Shown here piece by piece: positions 13,693-27,690 of a DNA stretch of 64,000 nucleotides (position 1 is its first letter; every line of letters begins with the position of its first letter). The DNA lies in assembly GCA_964248365.1 (NCBI GenBank), contig CAXTYC010000001.1, positions 64,001-128,000 of the forward strand, read 5' to 3'. A program made the position numbers and the translations under genes. The notes under the pieces are model-generated. The model searched no databases. It had not been told where the DNA came from and saw nothing but the letters and a program-made list of their open reading frames with translations. The DNA comes from an uncultured Chroococcidiopsis sp. Lineage in GTDB: Bacteria > Cyanobacteriota > Cyanobacteriia > Cyanobacteriales > Chroococcidiopsidaceae.

Positions 13693-16600
13693 TTACAAAG
13701 CCACAGCAACCGCCCCAGCAATCGCCGAACAAATCGCAGACACTAACGCAGTACCAAACAACCACCAAGCAGCTGATGCAGCCGCCTTTCTGGTTTCCTC
13801 TGCTTGGCGCTGCGCTTGCTCCTTCACAGCTTCTAAACGTCGTTGCGCCTCGTGCTGAATCCGCTCTGCCCGTTGCAGGACAGTGTTACGCGCACCCTCA
13901 ATCTGATCGATAATCCGGTTAGCATCCGCCTCGGAAATATCCTCACGGGAACTCAGAACCGCAACCAGAGTATCACGATTGAACGAAGAAAGCCGCGAAC
14001 GTATGGCATCAAATCCCGCCTGCGGATCGTCAAACATTTTGCGGACATCGCGCTTGATGCTGTCATAGTTAAGTTCAGGACGGTCAAGCGAATTAAGGTA
14101 ATGGCGAATTCTGGCAAAAATCCCCTCAATTGTATCTTGAATCCGCCGCTGAATCGCCCGTACTTGTTCCACAAATTGCTCACGGACTGATAAAACTTGA
14201 TCTACAATTCGGGCAGCTTCCTGATCCGAAATATCCTCGCGCAGTTTCAGCAGGGAAATTAAGGTATCGCGGTCGAAATGGGAAAGGCGATCGCTCAAAC
14301 TCTCCACCCCAGCTCGTGGATCGTGCAACAATAGATTCAAATCGCGCTTGATCCCCTCTGGGTTGAGTTCTTCCTTGCCAGTGTAGCGCAGGTATTCTTC
14401 TAGATAAGTTCGGAAATCATTCACTCTTTGCTGTGTCCGACTTGCAAAGCGACGGGGTGCTTTGACAATATCCCGAATTGAAGATTGAAGAGAATCGATT
14501 ACCTGATTAACTTGCTCTTCACTCAAGTCTTGACGTTGACTCAACAACTTCACCAGCGTGTCTCGATCAACTTGAGACAAGCGCCTTCTCAAGGCGGCGG
14601 CTCCCTCTTTCGGGTTAGAAAACAGTTTATTCAAATCCCGCTGGATGCCTTCGGGATTTAACTCTGACTTGCCAGTATTACGCAGATAATCAGCGATCGT
14701 CTGCGTGACAGAATCATACTGCTCCTTAGCTTTATCCGCTACCTTTTGCGGTGCGTGCCGAATGCTACTCCAAGAATCCTCAACAGAAGAGACAATTTGA
14801 TTTACTTGCTCTTCACTCAAATCTTGCCGCTGACTCAACAGTTTTACCAACGTGTCGCGGTCAAAGCGAGACAGTCTCGCCCCAATCGCCCCTGCTCCGG
14901 CTTGCGGATCTTCTAACAGAGTTTTCAGATCAGCTCTGATTCCATCAGGATTTAGTTGCTCTTTACCTGTGTTACGCAGATATGACTCTAAATTCAACCA
15001 CAGGCTTTCTGCTTGATATTTTGCTTGTTCTGCCAGTCCCTGAGACTCTACTACAACTTGATTGCGCTGTTTTTCCAGTTGATCCAAGATAGGATCTACT
15101 TCTTCGGGCGCAATATCATTGCGTTGGAGCAGCACTTGCCTCATTGATTCGCGGTCAAGACTAGCTAGGCGAAGATTGAGAGTATCATGATCTGTGTCTG
15201 GATCTTGAAGCAGTGGTTTGAAATTCTGCTCTATTCCTGGGGCAGTTAATTCTGCCTTACTCGTAACGAGCAAATAACTTTCTACACGACGCTGTAGTTC
15301 TTGTGCCGCCTCTTTTTCCTCAGCTGCTCTGACCTGGGCTAAAACTTCCATGCGGATAGCTTCTAACTGATCAGCAATATTATTGATTTGAGCTTGGGTA
15401 AGAATACCCCGCTGCCCTAGCAGTTGCACAAAATCGTTTCTTGATAGTTGCTCTAGCTGACGGCGTACTATGCCAGGATCGGCTGCGGGATCGTAGAGTA
15501 CATCTCGAAATTCCTGGGCAATTTTGTCCCGACTCATCTGCCAGGAGTAGGTATTGAGCAGGTAGTTTTCCACATCCGCCCGAATGGTGCTATATGGAAC
15601 TTCTGCGGATTTCATACCTGTTTGAGTAGCTACCTTATCCACTTGATCGGTAACTTTGTCTCTAGCGGTTAAGAGCGATCGCAATATCTTTTCTACATCT
15701 AAATCAGATAGATCCGCTCGTCCCATCACCATACCCATTAAGGTGTTGATGCCAGTCTGGAGAGTTTGCTGAACAGGACCTGGCGTAGCTTGTTCGGCTC
15801 CCTTTTGATCGCTAGAGTTAGATGAGCGCATTTCTGCCATCAGCTGATCGAGCTTTTGGTTTAGCTCATCTGTTTTTGTCTGTCCTGGCTGCACAGACTT
15901 GATATAATCGATCAATTCATCCATGCGATCACGCTGCGGCGGAGCTTGCTGATCCACCACTTGCCGCCAAACACTTTCTAGCTGGTCTACGATACGGTTC
16001 ATATCCCGTTTTGATAGATCGGTGCGATTGCCAATCAAATCGATAAACTTCTGCCGATCAATATTACGCAAGTCTTGACTACCAGCAACAGCTTTTAGCT
16101 GCGGATCGTTGAGTAACTTTTCAAATTCACCCCGAATCTTTGATAAATCTAGTTCTGGGGGACGGAGCATTTCCAGGTAATCTTCGATGTTGTCGCGGAT
16201 ACTGGCAGGGTCTACAGCACTTCCTAGTTCGCGGCGCACAGCTGCTGCTGCTGCTTCAGCCGTCGATACCACTTGCTGATTAACAGCTTTAGCTCCCAGT
16301 GCGGCAGTAGCTGTTCCCATGATCGCCTGAAAACCAGAAGTTGCTGCATTGACAACTGAACCGATCAACGAACCTACAGTCGTCGAACTCACCCAAACCA
16401 GCAGCAAAAAGTATGCGCCCCATATCACCAAACCCAGGATCGCTCCTAATCCCACATTCACAGTCAACAAGCTTAGTTGCACTGCTAAAAAACAAGCGAT
16501 CGCTAAGGCGATACTGACAGTTACTAACGTCCAAACCCCTACTGCTGTACCAATTTTGCGAACTGTGCCGCCCACACTGCCCGACTCATGAGTGCCTACA

Positions 16601-16836
16601 TCTGGTTCTGATTGCCGCCCCAAGATCGAAATTCCGGCGGCTACAGATAAGTTGGTTAATACCAATTGGACAGCAAAAGCCAAGATCACGCCCGATATCA
16701 AGGCGACAAAAAATCTTGGACCTGACAATACAAACGCTGCCTCTGCTGGCGTGGTGACTCCGCCATTTGTTGGTATTTGTGCCAACCAGAAGAGTGTTTT
16801 GTACAGTCCCGTGATTGTTTCTGTATTCTGAAACAT
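13693..16836 (-). CDS. Large membrane-anchored protein with ~100-aa helical repeats
   Basis: N-terminal TM helices, repeated YLRxTGKxELNPEGI.RDL..L..DP..G...LS..DRDTLV.LL units, C-terminal TM; start taken at MFQNTE. Confidence 0.8.
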   Translation of the reverse strand: MFQNTETITGLYKTLFWLAQIPTNGGVTTPAEAAFVLSGPRFFVALISGVILAFAVQLVLTNLSVAAGISILGRQSEPDVGTHESGSVGGTVRKIGTAVGVWTLVTVSIALAIACFLAVQLSLLTVNVGLGAILGLVIWGAYFLLLVWVSSTTVGSLIGSVVNAATSGFQAIMGTATAALGAKAVNQQVVSTAEAAAAAVRRELGSAVDPASIRDNIEDYLEMLRPPELDLSKIRGEFEKLLNDPQLKAVAGSQDLRNIDRQKFIDLIGNRTDLSKRDMNRIVDQLESVWRQVVDQQAPPQRDRMDELIDYIKSVQPGQTKTDELNQKLDQLMAEMRSSNSSDQKGAEQATPGPVQQTLQTGINTLMGMVMGRADLSDLDVEKILRSLLTARDKVTDQVDKVATQTGMKSAEVPYSTIRADVENYLLNTYSWQMSRDKIAQEFRDVLYDPAADPGIVRRQLEQLSRNDFVQLLGQRGILTQAQINNIADQLEAIRMEVLAQVRAAEEKEAAQELQRRVESYLLVTSKAELTAPGIEQNFKPLLQDPDTDHDTLNLRLASLDRESMRQVLLQRNDIAPEEVDPILDQLEKQRNQVVVESQGLAEQAKYQAESLWLNLESYLRNTGKEQLNPDGIRADLKTLLEDPQAGAGAIGARLSRFDRDTLVKLLSQRQDLSEEQVNQIVSSVEDSWSSIRHAPQKVADKAKEQYDSVTQTIADYLRNTGKSELNPEGIQRDLNKLFSNPKEGAAALRRRLSQVDRDTLVKLLSQRQDLSEEQVNQVIDSLQSSIRDIVKAPRRFASRTQQRVNDFRTYLEEYLRYTGKEELNPEGIKRDLNLLLHDPRAGVESLSDRLSHFDRDTLISLLKLREDISDQEAARIVDQVLSVREQFVEQVRAIQRRIQDTIEGIFARIRHYLNSLDRPELNYDSIKRDVRKMFDDPQAGFDAIRSRLSSFNRDTLVAVLSSREDISEADANRIIDQIEGARNTVLQRAERIQHEAQRRLEAVKEQAQRQAEETRKAAASAAWWLFGTALVSAICSAIAGAVAVAL

Positions 16837-17259
16837 TGTATTTCCTTCGATTAAGCTGCAATCAGCGCTAATTTTAAGTGTTATGTGAGGAGGAATTCTG
16901 GACTTTAGAATTTTCAACGCAACTACATAGGCTTAGAATCACCGCCCAGGGCTGCTTTAAGCATCCACCTCAGGTCTGAAAACTATGTCTTTTGCAGGAT
17001 GAGATTAAATTTACAAAAGCCAAGGTTTATTGAAAATAGCAGCAAGTAAGTGAATATATATACTTATTTCCAGTTATATCTAATACATTGCTGTAAAAAT
17101 CAAGCTTTTACACTCTCGATTGATAGAATTTCCTCACCTAAAAAGCACTTTGTAATAGTCCATTAGAAGGGGTAGCAGATTATGTCTCCAGACAGAAAGC
17201 AATTTTAAGATTCTTAACTAAATTAAAGATATCGAAGCAATTATTGGTCGGAGCAAAAG

Positions 17260-17469
17260 ATGGAAACCCGCGAAACTCGCCCTACTACTGATTTACCTCC
17301 TGTCGCTACAGAATACAACGGCGTAGATCGCAACGCCTTTTTGTTTGGCTATAATCCCCAAGCTGAATTGTGGAACGGACGCTTGGCAATGATTGGTTTT
17401 CTAGCTTACTTACTTTGGGACATGGCAGGATATAGCGTCCTACGTGATGTATTGCATCTAATTGGCTAA
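17260..17469 (+). CDS. High light inducible protein (HLIP/SCP)
   Basis: AELWNGRLAMIGF chlorophyll-binding motif. Confidence 0.93.
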   Translation: METRETRPTTDLPPVATEYNGVDRNAFLFGYNPQAELWNGRLAMIGFLAYLLWDMAGYSVLRDVLHLIG

Positions 17470-17525: not shown

Positions 17526-17735
17526 ATGCAATCTCCCGAAACTCGTCCTGCTACCGATGTACCACCTGTTGCTAAAGCTTACAACGGCGTAGACCGCAAT
17601 ACCTTTTTGTTTGGCTGGAATCCCCAAGCTGAACTATGGAACGGACGCTTGGCAATGATTGGTTTTCTAGCCTACTTACTTTGGGATATGGCAGGATACA
17701 GTGTTCTACGTGACCTACTGCACCTGGTTGGATAA
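17526..17735 (+). CDS. High light inducible protein, tandem paralog
   Basis: AELWNGRLAMIGF; near-identical to the upstream copy. Confidence 0.93.
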   Translation: MQSPETRPATDVPPVAKAYNGVDRNTFLFGWNPQAELWNGRLAMIGFLAYLLWDMAGYSVLRDLLHLVG

Positions 17736-17836: not shown

Positions 17837-17851
17837 AAAACTAGGAAGAGC

Positions 17852-18961
17852 CTAGATTAACTTTGAAAGGCGAAACCAAAACTGTGAACCACCCGCCTGA
17901 CGGTTATTGCAACCAATAGTACCCCCCCAACGTTCTATTGTAATGCGGCAAAAATAAAGTCCTAGACCACTTCTACCTGGTTGATTTTTACCTTGAGAAA
18001 ATTTTTGAAATAAAGTTGCAGCAACTTCTGGCTCTATACCATATCCTTCATCATCAACTGTAAAAAGAATAAATTCTCCTTCTTCTTTGACTCCAACAGT
18101 TACAGTTGAGCTAGGTGGACTGTACCTAAAAGCATTTTCTACTAAGTTAGTAATAACTCTTTCCAAACGTATCTTTTCTCCAACAACTTTCCATTCTCGC
18201 GTTTGGTCAACATTTGATTCTAGCTGCAAATTTTTATGATTTAAAGAAAAAGTTGGTGCTAAAGCGTTCACGACTTCCCTAGCACACAAAAGCGCGTCAG
18301 GAGCTTGCGAGGGATCAACTTCAGAATCTATTGATTCGACTTCAGCCGAAAACGCATCTAATATTTCTCGAATTAATGTTTCTTGTTTCTGACACTGTTT
18401 CTTACCAATTTCCAAATATTCTAAAGCTTTGGGAGATAAATTATTTAAGGTATGTAAAGAAAGAAGCTCAAAACAATATTTAATTGCGGTTAATTGTCCT
18501 GCTAAATCGTGGACTATACAATGAATCAAAATTTCTTTTTTTTGAATTTCTTTAATTAAGTTGTAATAACTTAAACTATTTTCCCTAGCTTTCTGGATTA
18601 AGGTCTGTTTATCTTGAAAATTAGCAATTATTAATAATATTTTTTTATTTTTTAAACTAACTGCTGAAGCTTCCAGGTACAATTCATCTCCTGACTCGTC
18701 AACTTCAATCCATATTCCTGATTTGAGCCTTCCTGTTTCATTTTCCATCCAAAAACTTTCTGCATCAATTAGAAAGTTTTCAAGCACGGGAAATTTTTCT
18801 CCTGGCATAAATTCATCACGCTTGCTATCTGCATCAGGATAAAATTGCCTAAACCAATTTGGCATAGCACCAATTATTTTAAAGTAATTATCATCACATC
18901 GCTCCATAGCTACAGTATCCAAGGCGGCAAATAACTCATCCGTGACAGAAGGGGTAATCAT
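17852..18961 (-). CDS. Cytoplasmic sensor histidine kinase
   Basis: H-box VHDL, N-box NLVENA, G1 DDEGYGI, F-box LFQKF, G2 SGLGL; no TM helix evident. Confidence 0.92.
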   Translation of the reverse strand: MITPSVTDELFAALDTVAMERCDDNYFKIIGAMPNWFRQFYPDADSKRDEFMPGEKFPVLENFLIDAESFWMENETGRLKSGIWIEVDESGDELYLEASAVSLKNKKILLIIANFQDKQTLIQKARENSLSYYNLIKEIQKKEILIHCIVHDLAGQLTAIKYCFELLSLHTLNNLSPKALEYLEIGKKQCQKQETLIREILDAFSAEVESIDSEVDPSQAPDALLCAREVVNALAPTFSLNHKNLQLESNVDQTREWKVVGEKIRLERVITNLVENAFRYSPPSSTVTVGVKEEGEFILFTVDDEGYGIEPEVAATLFQKFSQGKNQPGRSGLGLYFCRITIERWGGTIGCNNRQAGGSQFWFRLSKLI

Positions 18962-19971
18962 TTTACCTGGTAAGAGTATCGTAATGGCTCAATTATTTGT
19001 GTATCTAAAAGAGTACTCGTAGAGAAATATTTTTGCATTTCCCCAAGTTGATTAAATGTATTTTCATCGATTAAAATTTCTCTGGGACGAGCTTGATTTC
19101 CAAGTTGTTCTGCTAACTTGACGTGATGACCAACAGCAATAAGTGTTTTATTGTTTTTACTACCGATTATACCTAACGCAACCCTTCCTGAAGCAATACC
19201 GATTCCCGTCTCGAACGTGCAGCGTTTATCTTTTTGCCAAATACCAACTTCCCCTACTGCTTCAATCATACAGAGTGCTGCTGTAATTGCCCTCTCGCAT
19301 GGTGAGCCAGTTGCAGGTAGAATACCAAATAGAGCGATCGCTACATCTCCACTTATTTTATCTACCATACCACCTTGGTCAAGTACTGACTGAACTATAG
19401 TGGAAAAGTAGGATTTGAGTGCTAGAAAAATCTCCTCTGGCGAGTGGTTATCAATGTAAGAAGTTAATCCGCAGATGCGCGCCAGCAGAATGGTTACATC
19501 CCTGCGTTCTCCTCGTTCTAGTAGACGCAAAAACCCTTGAGATAAGTTTTCTGTGTCATAACGATTAATATACTGATTCAAGCTTCTGGCTTGTTTGTTC
19601 CGAATCAAGCTTAAATCATTACCCTTTTGTTGAACTAAACTGCGCTGGCTTTCAAACAAAGTTGCATCCAGCAATATAACCCAATCTCCTTCCTTTGCAG
19701 AAAAAATATGAACATCAGCGGAAATTCCTGACTCCATTTCTACACAAGGCAGATTTATTGGCGCTCCATTTAAAGGTAATAATCCTGTTAAAAATAATAT
19801 CTGTTGTTCTACATATTCCCCTTGTTGTAAGTTTGTTAATCCATACAAAGTCAAATTACCCCCCCAACGGGATAAGCGCCCATCTTTCATTACTAAAAGA
19901 TATGCTGGAGAACGACTTTCAATTGTAAATGTATGAAGAAAATTAACAACAGGATCAGGGAGGTAAAGCAT
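18958..19971 (-). CDS. Class III adenylate/guanylate cyclase-domain protein, apparently catalytically degenerate
   Basis: GERRDVTIL, GGMVDKISGD, GIGIASG, EILID; first metal Asp and the N/R pair appear substituted. Confidence 0.85.
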   Translation of the reverse strand: MLYLPDPVVNFLHTFTIESRSPAYLLVMKDGRLSRWGGNLTLYGLTNLQQGEYVEQQILFLTGLLPLNGAPINLPCVEMESGISADVHIFSAKEGDWVILLDATLFESQRSLVQQKGNDLSLIRNKQARSLNQYINRYDTENLSQGFLRLLERGERRDVTILLARICGLTSYIDNHSPEEIFLALKSYFSTIVQSVLDQGGMVDKISGDVAIALFGILPATGSPCERAITAALCMIEAVGEVGIWQKDKRCTFETGIGIASGRVALGIIGSKNNKTLIAVGHHVKLAEQLGNQARPREILIDENTFNQLGEMQKYFSTSTLLDTQIIEPLRYSYQVK

Positions 19972-20467
19972 CTATTTCCTCCAGCATTTTCTCGGTTAAG
20001 TTAAGAAAGGCTTGTTCCACACCTAAGCCTGATTTAGCACTGGTTTTAATTACCTGCCAATTTTTTTGAGAAATGTTTTCAAGGGTAGCATCGTCTATTT
20101 CCCATTCATCGCTTAAATCTGATTTATTAAGTATTAAAATAAACGGAATACCAATAGTACTTTCTACTCTTTGTTGAAGAGAAAATGCTTTATCTAAGGT
20201 GTAGCGTCTAGTTCCATCTACTACCAAGAGATAACCAGATGCTCCCCGCATATAAGACATTTGCACTCTTTGAAATTCGTCTTCTCCGTGAATATCCCAC
20301 AAAATCAGGTTTACTTCCACATCTTTTAGCTTGATTACTATCTTATCAATCTTCACCCCTACAGTTGAATGATAAACTTCAGAATAAATGCTTTTAACAA
20401 AACGTGATACTAAACTAGTTTTTCCCGTTGCAAAAGCACCCACCATGCATATTTTTTTTTGAATCAT
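19955..20467 (-). CDS. Ras/Rab-like small GTPase
   Basis: G1 GAFATGKT, G2 STVG, G3 WDIHG, G4 NKSD, G5 SAK in a 170-aa standalone protein. Confidence 0.92.
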   Translation of the reverse strand: MIQKKICMVGAFATGKTSLVSRFVKSIYSEVYHSTVGVKIDKIVIKLKDVEVNLILWDIHGEDEFQRVQMSYMRGASGYLLVVDGTRRYTLDKAFSLQQRVESTIGIPFILILNKSDLSDEWEIDDATLENISQKNWQVIKTSAKSGLGVEQAFLNLTEKMLEEIDALPP

Positions 20468-22425
20468 AACTCAGTAGATTTTCCCTTGGGCGCATCAGAT
20501 AAGAATACCTTAAAAGACACTCTACGGTTCAAGTCTTTATTCTTTTGCCCAAATTCTCTTGAACCTACCCCCACAGCAGTCAAATTAGATACTTTTAGTC
20601 CCTGCGAGGTTAAAGTAGATAAGATTGCATTTGCCCGCGCTTGGCTAAGGCGCAAATTATCTTCTTCTGAACCATCACTGTCAGCGTGTCCAATAATTTC
20701 AATTCGGATATTCTTATGAAAATATGGTGCAATATCGCTCAGTGTCCTAATTTGTTTTATTACTGCCTGTAGTTTATTATCCTCACTTGGTAAAAGTTGT
20801 GTACTGCCTTTGATAAAATAAAGTATTTGTTTTTCGAGTTGTTCTTTATTTGATTGAAGTGATTGAAGTTCTGTCTCAACTAAATTATGAGCCTGAATTT
20901 GATTAACACCAGGAAAATTGGTAGCTAGTTTTTTGGCTTGAGCAATCCATTGACGAGGAGCGGAGCCACTAGCATAAAGAATTCCGTTATTGTCAACTTT
21001 TAGTGCTACAGTTGCAGGCGGTTGCAGTAATCGTTTTACCCTTATAGTGGTAAATATAGGATCAATTGATATGTAAGATTCCCAACGGATAATAACTGCT
21101 TTGGGATTCAGCTTTGCTTCTTGTATCAGCTTAGTTGGCTCAGTCGCCAAAGGATCGCGCAGTCCAGAAATAAAATATTTTCCATTACGCTTCTCGGCAT
21201 TAACTACAACTATTCCAGGCTGGGAATTTAATTTTTCTAAAAAGTTTGCCCAACGCCATCTTTCTTGTATATGAAAAAAGCCCCAAATTCCCAAACAGCA
21301 GAATATACCACCTAGTAATATCCCTACAATAGGAGAAGGTTTGTCTTTTTTGGCTTGATACTGAACCTGAAGGCAATCTTCTAAATACGACCTACTTTTC
21401 TCAAAAGGCGTATCATCTCCTTGAAAAGAAATTAGAGCGCTACGAAACTGTTTATGAATTTTTTCAATAGTAGTTTGAAAAACTAACCTCAGCTCTTGCG
21501 GAGCATTCCCTCGGATTACACCTGCTAATATTGCCTGTGGACCTTGTTCAATCAAAATGGTAAGTTCTCCAAACTCTAAAGTGTCGAGGGCATCCTCTTG
21601 TGACACATTGAAAGAGTCTTGAACAAAAGTTTGAATAGCTGTCAACATAGCTGAAACTAAATCCGCATCTTGTGCAGCTACCGATTCGGCTACTACGTGT
21701 TGCAGAACTAAGCTAGTTTGTTTGTGAATCAAAAACACCTGTTCAACGCGGTAGACAAGAGTACGTAAAAGTACAACTTCAGCGAATGATTTCCCAGTTC
21801 GTTTAGCTTCTAGCCTCCATTTAAAACTTTGTGGAGATAAGCTATTGTCGAGAGTTTGATTGAGAGATTCGGTTAAGGTTTTGAGAGCTGTAGAAACAGC
21901 TTTTCTGATGGCTGGTCCCATTACTGGAAAAAGCGCATCAGAAAGAACATTCAGGTCTTGTTTAACCGAGTTGTGGATAGCTTGTTCAATCGTTGGAACC
22001 ACTGCTTTGGTGAGTTGTTCATCTTGCATCGTTCGCAGGATAATCGCCTCTGGTAGCACATTGCTAACATCCTCTGCAAGTACCTTGGGATTATCTAGTC
22101 GCGCTTGCAAATCCGCACCGAACAGCAAATTTCGTAGTTCAGAGAGTCCCTCCTCTTCTGAAGTAGAAGGATTGTGGGAAGAAGGCTGAGGTTTTGGCGG
22201 TGGTTCTACCCCAGACTGATGACCAAATAGTAGGTTTCTAAGTTCAGCCAGCGCCTCTTCTTCTTGTGCTGGAGAATAATTGGATGGCACTTTGTTAGAA
22301 TTTTGAGTATAAAAGTTAACTCCTTGCTGAATCGTTTCCTCATGGCTAAAGCTTCCGTTTTGTACCTTTAATTCGGAATTGGATTCGGAGAATTCCAAAT
22401 TGTTTTTATCTCTTTCATTGCTCAT
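20464..22425 (-). CDS. Single-pass membrane protein with C-terminal OmpA-like peptidoglycan-binding domain
   Basis: TM IVGILLGGIFCCLGIWGFF; IIGHADSDG..N..LSQARAN...NRRV. Confidence 0.88.
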   Translation of the reverse strand: MSNERDKNNLEFSESNSELKVQNGSFSHEETIQQGVNFYTQNSNKVPSNYSPAQEEEALAELRNLLFGHQSGVEPPPKPQPSSHNPSTSEEEGLSELRNLLFGADLQARLDNPKVLAEDVSNVLPEAIILRTMQDEQLTKAVVPTIEQAIHNSVKQDLNVLSDALFPVMGPAIRKAVSTALKTLTESLNQTLDNSLSPQSFKWRLEAKRTGKSFAEVVLLRTLVYRVEQVFLIHKQTSLVLQHVVAESVAAQDADLVSAMLTAIQTFVQDSFNVSQEDALDTLEFGELTILIEQGPQAILAGVIRGNAPQELRLVFQTTIEKIHKQFRSALISFQGDDTPFEKSRSYLEDCLQVQYQAKKDKPSPIVGILLGGIFCCLGIWGFFHIQERWRWANFLEKLNSQPGIVVVNAEKRNGKYFISGLRDPLATEPTKLIQEAKLNPKAVIIRWESYISIDPIFTTIRVKRLLQPPATVALKVDNNGILYASGSAPRQWIAQAKKLATNFPGVNQIQAHNLVETELQSLQSNKEQLEKQILYFIKGSTQLLPSEDNKLQAVIKQIRTLSDIAPYFHKNIRIEIIGHADSDGSEEDNLRLSQARANAILSTLTSQGLKVSNLTAVGVGSREFGQKNKDLNRRVSFKVFLSDAPKGKSTEL

Positions 22426-23023
22426 TTCTCAGTCTTATAGCAATTTCTGCAAACAAAGCCGATAGAGTGGATCGATTAGCTTTGTCTTTATGCAACTCTT
22501 GCGTTTGTCTTTCTATTACAGCCAACATTTCGGTAAATTTTTCTCTAATTTCATCGTCCAAGTTTTTGGATTGCTCTAAAATCTGTTGGCGTAAGTCACT
22601 AGCAGTTTTACTACCTTTCTCATCAAGCTGGGAAAGTTTTTCATTTATGGAAGTAGTTTGATTTCTTTGTTCTAGTTCAAGTTGTTTTAAAGCTTCATCT
22701 TGGGCAGTCTGTTGTTTTTTAACGGTTCGTGCCAAAGACTCAATTTCTTGTTTTATATACGTTTCTATAGAATCTAACCGCTTTCTTGTATCATTTCTAA
22801 GTGTGGCGCATTCATTGCTCAGCCGTTCTTCTAGGCGATTAAATCTTTTTTCATATTCCTGCATTTGGGAACCAAAAAGAATATCTCTAACTTTGTCTAA
22901 ATTCCCACTACTTCCAATATCGCTGCCTGAAAGTTGAGGTCTATTCATATTTATTCCTTGACTTAAATTTTCTGTTATCGGTTCTACAGTAATGTAAGTT
23001 ACATTTTCCTCTGGTGTGTTCAT
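22415..23023 (-). CDS. Coiled-coil hypothetical protein
   Basis: LDKVRDILFG then a long heptad-rich segment; stop overlaps the start of the OmpA-domain gene. Confidence 0.8.
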   Translation of the reverse strand: MNTPEENVTYITVEPITENLSQGINMNRPQLSGSDIGSSGNLDKVRDILFGSQMQEYEKRFNRLEERLSNECATLRNDTRKRLDSIETYIKQEIESLARTVKKQQTAQDEALKQLELEQRNQTTSINEKLSQLDEKGSKTASDLRQQILEQSKNLDDEIREKFTEMLAVIERQTQELHKDKANRSTLSALFAEIAIRLRNEQ

Positions 23024-23679
23024 GATTTTGATCCTTTTGTGCAATTGAATTTTAACAGTTTACTTTTTCAATAACATATTATGCGCTCTGTCACTCAAAT
23101 ATATTTATTTAATTTGTATATGAGGATTGCATAATTTTTATCCTTGCTTTACTAAAGTGAGTCCTAGCAGCGGACACCAGGGGCTAAAATTGCTCAAAAT
23201 CCATAAGCATATATGATAATTGCGATTGCAGTAAATCAAAGCCGACTCAAGACTAAAGATATTTTCTCAACTTGTAAAATACCATAGTTTAAAATACGGT
23301 TATCTGGATTTTTTATAAAATTATTATATTTATAAATATACATGGTTATTTTGATTTATCTCAAGAATCTGTTGGCTAAAAATTAAGGTTTTAGTTGTGA
23401 CATTATCATATTCGGATTTTACTTATTTTAACTAGTATAATTTATGACTTATTTTTTGCAGTTGCCTGCACTGAAAACTAGCAAATGGTGCGTTACGGCA
23501 AAGCAAGAGCGCACCTTACGCATTTTAAATCAAAATAATTTTTACTATCAGATGCAATGTAAATTATCAAAATCTCAAAGTATTATTTGTTGCTCTATAA
23601 TCGAAAAAATAAATGTAAATTTTGATATACTGTAACGATTGAAACAGTTGTAGTACTTAAAATGGGTTGAATTGGTTAA

Positions 23680-26493: not shown

Positions 26494-26641
26494 AAGATAT
26501 GGAGTTAGTCTGGATCTATGCCAAGCGATCGCAGCCTTTGGGCTAGCCGTTCTGCTCGTTGTTGTGCTAATTCCTTCTCTTGTCGTTCTTGTAGTGCTGC
26601 TTCCTCTGGTGTGGGAACTTTATCGCCCTGTGGGGTAAAAT

Positions 26642-27065
26642 AGCGCAACTGTTCTTGTTCTACACCCAAATATAAGCCTAGTTCTTCGCTCCAGCGCCAG
26701 CCTTGGGGATTTGGGGTTATCTCTTGATAACGTCCCATCAGCCTCCATCCTTCAAACTCCAAAGTATCTGGAGAAAACCAGAAATACTCTGGTGTGCGAA
26801 AGCGTTCTTGATATAAGTCTTTTTTCCTTGTGCGGTCAGTTGTAGCCGTAGAGAGCGCAACTGTTCTTGTTCTACACCCAAATATAAGCCTAGTTCTTCG
26901 CTCCAGCGCCAGCCTTGGGGATTTGGGGTTATCTCTTGATAACGTCCCATCAGCCTCCATCCTTCAAACTCCAAAGTATCTGGAGAAAACCAGAAATACT
27001 CTGGTGTGCGAAAGCGTTCTTGATATAAGTCTTTTTTCCTTGTGCGGTCAGTTGTAGCCGTAGAG
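26642..27065. repeat. 212-bp tandem duplication
   Basis: 26642-26853 repeated at 26854-27065, apparently identical. Confidence 0.92.
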
Positions 27066-27076
27066 GTGGATAATAA

Positions 27077-27121
27077 CTCAACGTTCCGCGCCAGGAGGCT
27101 GGCGCGGCTGCGTTGAGCAAG
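27077..27121. mobile_element. 45-nt hairpin insertion in the Uma2 pseudogene
   Basis: Splits IIE|LLS in frame; CTCAACG..CCGCGCCAG-GAGG-CTGGCGCGG..CGTTGAG-CAAG, then CTC repeated. Confidence 0.75.
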
Positions 27122-27690
27122 CTCAATAATCAAATTTGGGTACTTGCCATCTTCTTCCCACACAACCCAAGCATTGCGATCGCGCTTTTGTGTCTGCTTG
27201 ACTAGGGAAAAAATCGGGACCACGAAAGTCTCGATTTCGCAGTTGTTGGCGACTGAAATATATAGTTAGGTTAGCGCCGATAAAGAAGTCGTTGCGATCG
27301 CGCCATAGCCATTCTAGACAGCTAACGAGCAGCAGCAATTGCATATAGTGTAAAGAACTTTCCATTTCTGGCTCGTCGCTATACAGTTGAGTGGCATCAG
27401 GCATCATTGATTCTAGTTGCCCCGCTGTTAAAACCATATTCGCCTAGTGTCTGCTGGATTTTGTTTTTATTATGGCTGCTACGGGGCGATCGCGTTATCA
27501 TGCTTTCTCGCTTTTACACCTCGAAAGAGGTAGAACCTCTGCGAGAAAAAACTCGAACGCGAAGGGTAGTTTGTCGCTGGGAGTTGATAATAGAAGAGAG
27601 TAGGGGCGGATTGAATCGATATATTTGTTGGTAGCACAGATATTAGAAAAACTCGCTTTTACGTCTATCACAATTCTTAAATATATAGAT

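Follow-up and report, generated by a model that had tools for sequence, protein, structure and literature searches.

The stretch of DNA analyzed here (64,000 nucleotides, nt, of contig CAXTYC010000001.1 from an uncultured Chroococcidiopsis sp., termed the window herein) carries at positions 17852 to 23023 five overlapping open reading frames (ORFs), all on the minus strand, and this five-gene operon represents the "Group 1 Rup" (Rup1) type of small-GTPase signaling module in a cyanobacterium. The operon is real and strongly conserved, and its kind was already catalogued in 2014 (PMC4316618). Having five genes, one of them for a decayed cyclase, makes it a minor variant of the Rup1 module. To the published description we add two predicted folds, a longin domain in the membrane protein and a PAS domain in one of the output proteins, and a modeled complex of the longin domain with the GTPase that passed its controls. 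We consider it moderately probable that the module works as a whole, with a longin platform that sets the state of the GTPase, whose own targets would be the N-terminal domains of the output proteins.

In the order of transcription, the operon encodes a soluble coiled-coil-type protein of 202 amino acids (gene 1, 22415 to 23023), a single-pass membrane protein of 653 amino acids with an OmpA domain (gene 2, 20464 to 22425), a Rab-like Rup1 GTPase of 170 amino acids with F12 and E62 (gene 3, 19955 to 20467), a protein of 337 amino acids with a predicted PAS domain and a degenerate class III cyclase homology domain (gene 4, 18958 to 19971), and a soluble histidine kinase of 369 amino acids (gene 5, 17852 to 18961). 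Gene 1 was taken from the ORF list with an ATG start, and genes 2 to 5 were assigned from their ORFs and Pfam matches (OmpA, Ras, Guanylate_cyc, and HATPase_c, respectively). The sequence AAGGA lies 10 nt before the ATG of gene 1, and an alternative TTG start at 23044 in the ORF list would give a protein of 209 amino acids. Successive genes overlap by 11, 4, 17, and 4 nt, which bears out the overlapping arrangement (4 to 17 nt) described in an earlier note made from the letters of this DNA.

The Group 1 Rup neighborhood was defined computationally by Wuichet and Sogaard-Andersen (2014, Genome Biol Evol 7:57; PMC4316618). As described there, the GTPases lack the G3 glutamine and adjoin three conserved genes, which encode a cytoplasmic coiled-coil protein, a protein combining an unknown domain with a transmembrane segment and an OmpA domain, and a signaling output, typically a GGDEF/EAL protein or a histidine kinase, whose N-terminal region contains an invariant glutamine. 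Rup1 occurs in Cyanobacteria among other phyla, its clades follow taxonomy, and no Rup protein had been characterized as of 2014 (PMC4316618). A later preprint (10.1101/2024.02.28.582541) treats bacterial "Rup1" as a recognized group nested with Rab, Ras, and Rho.

The operon has the same parts: a putative coiled-coil protein, a Ras-like single-domain GTPase without the G3 glutamine (Pfam Ras, 5.5e-30; G3 motif WDIHGE; Rab proteins as the best solved relatives), an adjacent protein in which a cytoplasmic domain without any Pfam or NCBIfam match is followed by a membrane helix and, at the C terminus, by an OmpA domain, and outputs with the N-terminal glutamine (Q114 and Q115 in gene 4, Q123 in the kinase), and it contains no response regulator. 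It differs from the published module in encoding both a class III cyclase homologue and a kinase as outputs, whereas PMC4316618 names GGDEF/EAL or a kinase as typical, and in the degeneracy of its cyclase. The domain of the membrane protein and the N-terminal region of the output had no fold assigned in that paper, whereas they are modeled here as longin and PAS, respectively. The Rup-type system presented in the earlier note as largely uncharacterized is thus not new in its architecture, the four-gene core of which PMC4316618 had described; on the other hand, our literature search, whose coverage excluded subscription journals, found no experimental study of a Rup1 module, and it found no paper that names the OmpA-linked domain a longin domain.

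Conservation of the operon

Relatives of the membrane protein numbered 368 in a pattern scan over one genome per species; the best 80 loci were searched by tblastn with the five proteins of the window, and the counts out of 75 and 67 given below refer to them. The 80 loci are mostly from Nostocales and other cyanobacteria, with a few on contigs labeled Acidobacteria, Desulfobacteraceae, and Tatlockia. The membrane-protein gene is preceded by the coiled-coil gene in 74 of 75 testable loci (all but L041) and directly followed by the GTPase gene in 73 of 75 (72 by the rule of the script, and 73 when L021, where the match to the membrane protein was split in two, is corrected); the two true exceptions are L016 and L018. 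Gene order, by which the earlier note had proposed that its idea be judged, is therefore conserved in these 73 loci, and the paralogues agree: in a subfamily with membrane proteins about 26% identical to that of the window, four of five sampled loci keep the order of coiled-coil gene, membrane-protein gene, and GTPase gene, followed by kinases or cyclases.

Among 301 sampled genomes of the phylum, 44 encode the cytoplasmic domain of the membrane protein at E ≤ 1e-10; 11 of these carry close copies (49 to 100% identity), and the rest carry paralogues of 26 to 32% identity. The window's own genome has a single Rup gene, and some other genomes have two or three paralogous Rup-type modules. The paralogous module was seen in the cyanobacterial loci L082, L084, L085, and L086, with membrane proteins of 729 to 905 amino acids, GTPases 34 to 38% identical to that of the window, and larger kinases or cyclases next to them. 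L083 contains a membrane-protein paralogue of 1,203 amino acids without an adjacent GTPase. At the place of the GTPase and output genes, L016 (9217 to 15633) and L018 (7662 to 8792) (Scytonema and Rhizonema metagenome-assembled genome) contain a nonribosomal peptide synthetase (NRPS) or flavin adenine dinucleotide (FAD)-oxidoreductase gene. A complete five-gene copy, with proteins about 50 to 73% identical to those of the window, is present in L037, on a contig labeled Tatlockia (Legionellales) and binned to a gammaproteobacterium; this copy could reflect horizontal transfer or a binning error.

The outputs are more variable than the genes before them. Downstream DNA sufficed for a comparison in 67 loci: the gene-4-type N-terminal domain stands alone before the kinase in 40, it is fused to a cyclase and followed by the kinase as in the window in 8, and the kinase is the only output in 12; gene-4-type N-terminal domain proteins alone were found in 3 loci, the N-terminal domain-cyclase fusion alone in 1, and an HD-GYP-type output in 1, and 2 loci have no output. 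The absence of a response regulator, pointed out in the earlier note, was confirmed: two receiver-domain queries gave no tblastn match at E ≤ 1e-4 within the 64-kb window, and no receiver domain was found by Pfam in the seven flanking ORFs scanned. Any receiver-like match occurs in only 7 of 81 sources (the 80 loci plus the window). The kinase gene of L015 (Microseira) is followed about 2.3 kb further downstream by a receiver-domain gene, L019 (Microseira) and L021 (a metagenome-assembled genome) show a similar placement, and L004 (likewise a metagenome-assembled genome) also contains a receiver-domain gene, with no kinase detected in that locus. A downstream receiver of the L015 type could be the missing regulator in that lineage.

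The wall-anchored membrane protein and the GTPase

From its N terminus, the gene 2 protein consists of the N-terminal motif(s), a helical region, a predicted longin domain, a transmembrane helix, a periplasmic region, and an OmpA-like domain. No Pfam or NCBIfam model matched the cytoplasmic region (residues 105 to 385), whose family comprises 4,587 clusters at 50% identity (E ≤ 1e-3), or 1,578 at E ≤ 1e-30. We modeled this region with AF2 from alignment A1 (the query plus 56 of 150 listed representatives, hand-picked for spread) and obtained a mean predicted local distance difference test score (pLDDT) of 81.2, with helices up to model residue 118 and then elements in the order β-β-α-β-β-β-α-α. 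The helical part (residues 105 to 222; 21760 to 22113) is strongly conserved in A1 and has pLDDT values of 56 to 91 by 10-residue block (56 to 80 before model residue 100); no fold was identified for it, the fold-search matches listed all being filled by the domain that follows. That domain (residues 223 to 357; 21355 to 21759) corresponds to model residues 119 to 253, which are the part covered by the VIA-align matches. The best of these was Sec22b, with a Z score of 15.0 (root mean square deviation 2.5, 125 of 128 residues), followed by Ykt6 (13.9), Fuzzy of the Rab23 guanine nucleotide exchange factor (GEF) (12.7), TRAPP subunits (about 10 to 11), Mon1-Ccz1 (10.5), and a Lokiarchaeal longin protein (10.2). 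Foldseek gave matches to AP sigma (6.3e-5) and Mon1-Ccz1 (2.5e-4), with a template modeling (TM) score of 0.75 for the longin domain of Sec22b, and it also matched GATOR1/FLCN chains and MglB chains (1.8e-3 to 8e-3, TM score 0.45); MglB is absent among the 50 VIA-align matches listed, all with Z scores of at least 9.8. Longin and roadblock folds are circular permutants of each other (PMC3521125). The arrangement of strands and helices and the superposition of about 125 residues argue that the cytoplasmic domain has a longin fold, so that the guess of a longin- or roadblock-like domain in the earlier note gains support from modeling in its longin form.

A hydrophobic run at about residues 364 to 386 (21268 to 21336; helix 261 to 280 of the model) with a Lys-rich N-terminal side is the predicted transmembrane helix, and the C-terminal part contains the OmpA-like peptidoglycan-binding domain (residues 536 to 634; 20524 to 20820; Pfam OmpA, 6.1e-15, and NCBIfam matches of the Pal, MotB, and YiaD types). 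BON domains were found in 5 of 15 longer relatives of the protein. This part of the protein bears on the question of whether the module might be a spatial landmark or polarity device instead of an envelope sensor, with OmpA fixing the complex at a place in the wall, such as a pole or septum, and the GTPase recruiting the kinase there, by analogy with MglA/MglB polarity control. The OmpA domain is indeed the anchor type of Pal and MotB, no ligand-binding periplasmic domain was found in the protein of the window, and pairs of small GTPases with roadblock or longin proteins control localization in Myxococcus and in eukaryotes. However, classical signaling enzymes on modular PAS heads fit a signal relay, and the BON domains of the longer relatives suggest contact with the envelope beyond anchoring. 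We regard the landmark explanation as distinctly unlikely.

The GTPase contains all five G motifs, which were assigned by eye (GAFATGKT, STVGV, WDIHGE, NKSD, and SAK); G1, G2, G4, and G5 are canonical. Its closest solved relatives are Rab23 (6e-24) and then Rab4, a Thorarchaeota Rab, Rab2, and Rab1. The orthologue alignment A3 has F12, W57, and Y72 in every sequence and E62 in 25 of its 27. The Phe stands at the position of Ras G12 and the Glu at that of Ras Q61. The complete G1-to-G5 set reported in the earlier note is thus present as motifs, but with Glu in place of Gln61 in G3 and Phe at the Gly12 position, and because both of the classical hydrolysis positions are noncanonical, the GTPase probably hydrolyzes GTP slowly on its own. 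It has no C-terminal lipidation motif, so that membrane attachment must come from a partner.

We therefore turn to the predicted complex between two copies of the cytoplasmic region of the gene 2 protein and one GTPase, a prediction that the earlier note had called for. The interface score ipSAE was 0.65 (0.63 to 0.66 between runs), compared to 0.00 for the best of three controls, and this mark is reached by 116 of 157 solved complexes and by 2 of 215 mismatched pairs; our alignments were unpaired and differed from those of this calibration set. The runs agreed in at least 97% of contacts, and the pLDDT of the partner was at least 77. On the membrane protein, the predicted contacts involve helix α1 of both copies (residues 252 to 271), the β1-β2 loop (236 to 240), and residues 336 to 339; on the GTPase, they involve residues 1 to 5, 25 to 42 (switch I and interswitch), 53 to 57, and 67 to 76 (switch II). 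Helix α1 holds the family-invariant residues M260, A263, and F267, and the contact side of the GTPase includes W57 and Y72. The complex model supports binding of the longin domain to the GTPase, short of proof.

Predicted contacts of this kind resemble two groups of known systems. Eukaryotic longin Rab GEFs (Mon1-Ccz1/Ypt7, TRAPP/Ypt1, and Fuzzy-Inturned/Rab23) pair a longin fold (Z scores of 10 to 13 here) with a Rab-like GTPase, and Rab23 is the closest solved relative of the GTPase in the window. Both these GEFs and MglB bind their GTPases by the platform mode predicted here, with α1 of two protomers on the switch/interswitch face. Sequence identity to the longin GEFs is about 10%, at which homology is not established by sequence, and the module differs from them in the modeled homodimer on a single-pass, wall-anchored bacterial protein, in the F12 and E62 of its GTPase, and in that an exchange role is putative. 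MglA/MglB of Myxococcus and Thermus likewise combine a bacterial small GTPase with a dimeric partner of the roadblock/longin superfamily encoded by the adjacent gene. However, the GTPase of the window belongs to the Rup family and not to the MglA family, following the classification in PMC4316618, and its partner is closer in topology to longin (Sec22b, TM score 0.75) than to roadblock (MglB, TM score 0.45) and is anchored in membrane and wall.

The coiled-coil protein encoded by gene 1 gave only weak Pfam matches, to coiled-coil families. The earlier note had observed a motif common to this protein and the OmpA protein, and the motif is both real and conserved. It reads LDKVRDILFG in gene 1 (residues 42 to 51; 22871 to 22900) and occurs twice in gene 2, as LAELRNLLFG (residues 59 to 68; 22222 to 22251) and LSELRNLLFG (residues 94 to 103; 22117 to 22146). 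The pattern [LIVM]R.[LIVM][LIVMF].G was found in 74 of 76 orthologues of the coiled-coil protein and in 69 of 80 orthologues of the membrane protein; none of these relatives of the membrane protein scored more than one copy (69 have one and 11 none). The shared N-terminal segment spans about 22 (20 to 25) residues in both proteins, with the consensus LdKVRDILFGnQmRevEKrF.RLEERL in the coiled-coil protein (65 distinct orthologue segments) and LseLRSLLlG.Ep..L.klyerL in the membrane protein (66 distinct segments), and ELRxLLxG also appears in the consensus of the wider membrane-protein family (A1). The motif might be a helix by which the two proteins pair or bind a common partner.

The output proteins and the proposed mechanism

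The N-terminal domain of the gene 4 protein together with its signaling helix (residues 1 to 135; 19567 to 19971) had no Pfam PAS match by sequence. Its AF2 model, built from 38 sequences (A2), has a pLDDT of 83.5 and a PAS topology, in which a five-stranded antiparallel sheet with a helical connector lies between an N-cap and a C-terminal helix; VIA-align gave PYP (Z score of 10.1, root mean square deviation 2.2, 84 residues aligned) and the PAS domain of ThkA (9.9), all 50 matches listed were PAS-type sensor domains, and Foldseek was concordant, all of which points to a PAS fold. W36, G37, G38, D86, W97, Q114, Q115, and N118 are invariant in the 38 sequences, and in the model the long helix after the PAS core starts with the Q114-Q115 pair. 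This pair is most likely the "invariant glutamine" of PMC4316618. Across the loci, the domains found behind such N-terminal domains are cyclase, histidine kinase, HD-GYP-type HD, PAS, and hybrid histidine kinase with receiver and Hpt domains; the gene-4-type PAS head itself occurs joined to a cyclase or to a second PAS domain, or stands alone. Natural in-frame fusions of the PAS gene and the kinase gene are present in L006 (4550 to 6010; 486 amino acids) and L031 (9202 to 10701; 499 amino acids).

The class III cyclase homology domain of gene 4 (residues 156 to 317; 19021 to 19506; Pfam Guanylate_cyc, 1.3e-12) was aligned by HMMER with Cya2 (2w01, 4.2e-15) and CyaC (1wc1, 4.2e-10). At the six catalytic positions it reads RKDIKQ instead of the canonical DKD(T/D)NR; four of the six residues are lost (the first metal Asp is replaced by R165, Thr by I278, Asn by K285, and Arg by Q289), and K205 and D209 are kept. 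The canonical residues are two metal-binding Asp, a Lys and a Thr/Asp for the base, and an Asn and an Arg for the transition state. The DKDTNR signature is retained in 5 of 50 full-length sequences (that of the window and 49 relatives), and the first metal Asp is retained in 10. The earlier note's reading of a cyclase-like protein thus stands as to the fold, and the protein lacks four of the six catalytic residues of an active class III cyclase. Like Cya2 of Synechocystis and CyaC of Spirulina, gene 4 places a homologous catalytic fold behind a sensor domain and a helix, but unlike them it has R165, I278, K285, and Q289 at catalytic positions. The fused form of N-terminal domain and cyclase is found on contigs labeled from three phyla, and the stand-alone N-terminal domain is found in Nostocales-type loci. 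The series may be read as a cyclase output that has decayed to a regulator consisting of the PAS domain alone, and the operon would be a clear example of such decay.

A cyclase together with a MotB-like anchor and a coiled-coil tail might also point to an antiphage defense system of the Zorya or Pycsar type, and PADLOC gave weak matches of the coiled-coil protein to the coiled-coil tail of ZorA (2.6e-5), of the OmpA domain to ZorB (2e-10), and of the cyclase domain to PycC (6.9e-15). However, these matches fall on generic parts (coiled coil, OmpA domain, and class III cyclase fold), neither a MotA-type channel nor an effector was found, the GTPase and the kinase have no PADLOC match, and the cyclase is degenerate. 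The conservation of gene order in 73 of 75 loci and the taxonomic distribution of the clades (PMC4316618) also argue against defense, and we reject this explanation as extremely improbable.

The gene 5 protein consists of an N-terminal domain (residues 1 to 140), an H box containing H151, and an HATPase_c domain (residues 262 to 366; 5.4e-23); its HisKA match is weak (0.0052) and below the gathering score. By eye, H151 lies in VHDLAGQL, and NLVENA, DDEGYG, FQKF, and GLGL represent the N, G1, F, and G2 boxes. The protein therefore has the H-box His and the ATP-binding boxes of a HisKA-type kinase, and Pfam found no membrane or HAMP part in it. Q123 is conserved in at least 90% of 68 sequences. 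The nearest look-alikes of its N-terminal domain in Atlas are hypothetical proteins of 132 to 142 amino acids from Cyanobacteria and Acidobacteria (0.92 to 0.93), which provide a lead only and the sole hint of a tie to the PAS domain of gene 4.

Taken together, the explanation that we prefer would run as follows. The membrane protein would cross the membrane once, with the OmpA-like domain on the peptidoglycan outside and the helical region and longin domain inside; it would dimerize, and the two longin α1 helices would clasp the GTPase at both switch regions (I and II) and at the interswitch strands. This platform would retain the GTPase, itself devoid of a lipid anchor, at the membrane and would set its nucleotide state according to the periplasmic or wall-bound part, an exchange-factor-like action being our first choice. 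The loaded GTPase might then act on the N-terminal domains of the two downstream proteins. The kinase would be switched by the GTPase and then signal to an unlinked response regulator, and the dead cyclase would be a PAS-domain regulatory partner and not an enzyme. The coiled-coil protein may assemble with the membrane protein as a scaffold, as the common N-terminal motif suggests. A relay from envelope state through the GTPase to the kinase, which the earlier note had proposed, is likewise something that we infer from this arrangement.

The polarity of regulation might also be the opposite. The longin platform could be a GTPase-activating protein (GAP), as are MglB, FLCN-FNIP, and GATOR1, or a nucleotide-independent tether, with the PAS-headed proteins as pure effectors; or the N-terminal domain of the output could itself be the GAP that supplies the missing Gln in trans, as PMC4316618 proposes. 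Roadblock and longin proteins do include GAPs, MglB and GATOR1/FLCN chains are among the Foldseek matches, and the absence of the catalytic Gln from the GTPase makes a catalytic residue acting in trans plausible, for which the invariant Q114, Q115, and N118 and the conserved kinase Q123 would be available. Nevertheless, the domain comes closest in structure to longin domains of SNAREs and Rab GEFs and not to GAPs, and the invariant Gln lies at the start of the post-PAS helix, a usual position for a dimer or signaling helix. Moreover, the Phe at the position of Ras G12 is expected to hinder a classical finger or Gln mechanism. We judge these reversed arrangements to be unlikely and retain an exchange-factor-like platform as the preferred one.

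A number of observations weigh against the preferred explanation. The structural evidence consists wholly of predictions, the success of the complex model may echo the memory that the program has of solved longin-Rab and MglB-MglA complexes, and the results do not discriminate between an exchange factor, a GAP, and a plain anchor. In the periplasmic part of the membrane protein, the OmpA domain was the only match at E ≤ 0.01, with no BON or other sensor domain, so that sensing of the envelope state has no direct support from the protein of the window. L016 and L018 keep the coiled-coil and membrane-protein genes with an NRPS or FAD-oxidoreductase gene in place of the GTPase gene, and the coiled-coil/membrane protein pair can therefore exist without a linked GTPase. 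Homology of the N-terminal domains of gene 4 and the kinase was not supported (BLASTP E value of 0.25; hhalign E value of 0.17 and probability of 0.4), and reciprocal hidden Markov model searches over 3,784 ORFs gave no cross-match between the N-terminal domains better than an E value of 1.5; since this sequence link to the PAS domain fails, the fold of the kinase N-terminal domain is unproven.

The module also recalls the actinobacterial conservon, to which PMC4316618 likens the Rup1 system. In the conservon CvnA-D, according to that paper, one operon without a response regulator contains the genes for a histidine kinase, a small GTPase, a protein of the roadblock type, and one more protein, similar to the situation here. 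In contrast, Cvn has an MglA-family GTPase, a membrane-bound HAMP kinase, and a soluble roadblock protein, whereas in the operon of the window it is the longin protein that resides in the membrane and the kinase that is soluble. The GTPase of the window has an Asp-containing Ras-type G3 motif and groups with Rabs, so that the likeness to the conservon is one of analogy only.

No other bacterial proteins stand as close to eukaryotic Rab, Ras, and Rho as the Rup1 GTPases (PMC4316618; 10.1101/2024.02.28.582541). If the longin-type regulator is true, the operon would provide a compact bacterial model for the control of a Rab-like switch by a longin platform, and an origin of longin domains from roadblock domains inside the eukaryotes, as held in PMC3521125, would have to be reconciled with a bacterial family of 4,587 clusters. 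The operon would also be a candidate route from the cyanobacterial cell wall to a two-component kinase. A bolder version of this explanation holds that the longin domain forms with the Rab-like GTPase a genuine bacterial pair homologous to the eukaryotic Rab-GEF platforms, that Rab/longin logic exists, or was exchanged, outside eukaryotes and Asgard archaea, that peptidoglycan is coupled directly to a kinase without a second messenger, and that the F12/E62 GTPase is hydrolysis-poor and governed by exchange and by its PAS-domain partners; this combination appears doubtful to us.

Composition and flanking DNA

The AT richness of the operon noted earlier is true yet modest, with a GC content of 37.7% compared to 42.0% for the window, and 9 of 236 windows of equal length are as low or lower. 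A terminator-like hairpin followed by a T run lies across the stop codon of the kinase gene (17841 to 17855, minus strand); it is a consensus match only, of a type found 8 times compared to 4.3 ± 2.3 times in shuffled sequences. The promoter scan was uninformative, with 20 promoter-like sites compared to 19.3 ± 5.1 in shuffles.

According to Pfam, the seven flanking ORFs encode two HLIP-type proteins, a DUF1499 protein, a metallophosphoesterase, two Uma2 proteins, and a large repeat protein. The HLIP-type genes are two tandem high-light-inducible (one-helix CAB-like) genes of 69 amino acids each (17260 to 17469 and 17526 to 17735, plus strand), convergent with the 3' end of the operon. The large repeat protein (13693 to 16917, minus strand) has 1,074 amino acids, with hydrophobic segments at each end and six or more repeats, each about 90 residues long and arranged in tandem, that follow the pattern ...ELNPEGI.RDL...DP.AG...RLS.FDRDTLV.LLSQR.DLSEEQVNQI...; its sole Pfam match is a partial one to Bac_DNA_binding (2.5e-7), with no single stretch passing by itself. 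At 26505 to 27223 (minus strand), the two Uma2-family ORFs overlap and have an identical stretch of about 70 residues in common, which implies that about 216 nt within a single Uma2 endonuclease gene have undergone direct tandem duplication.

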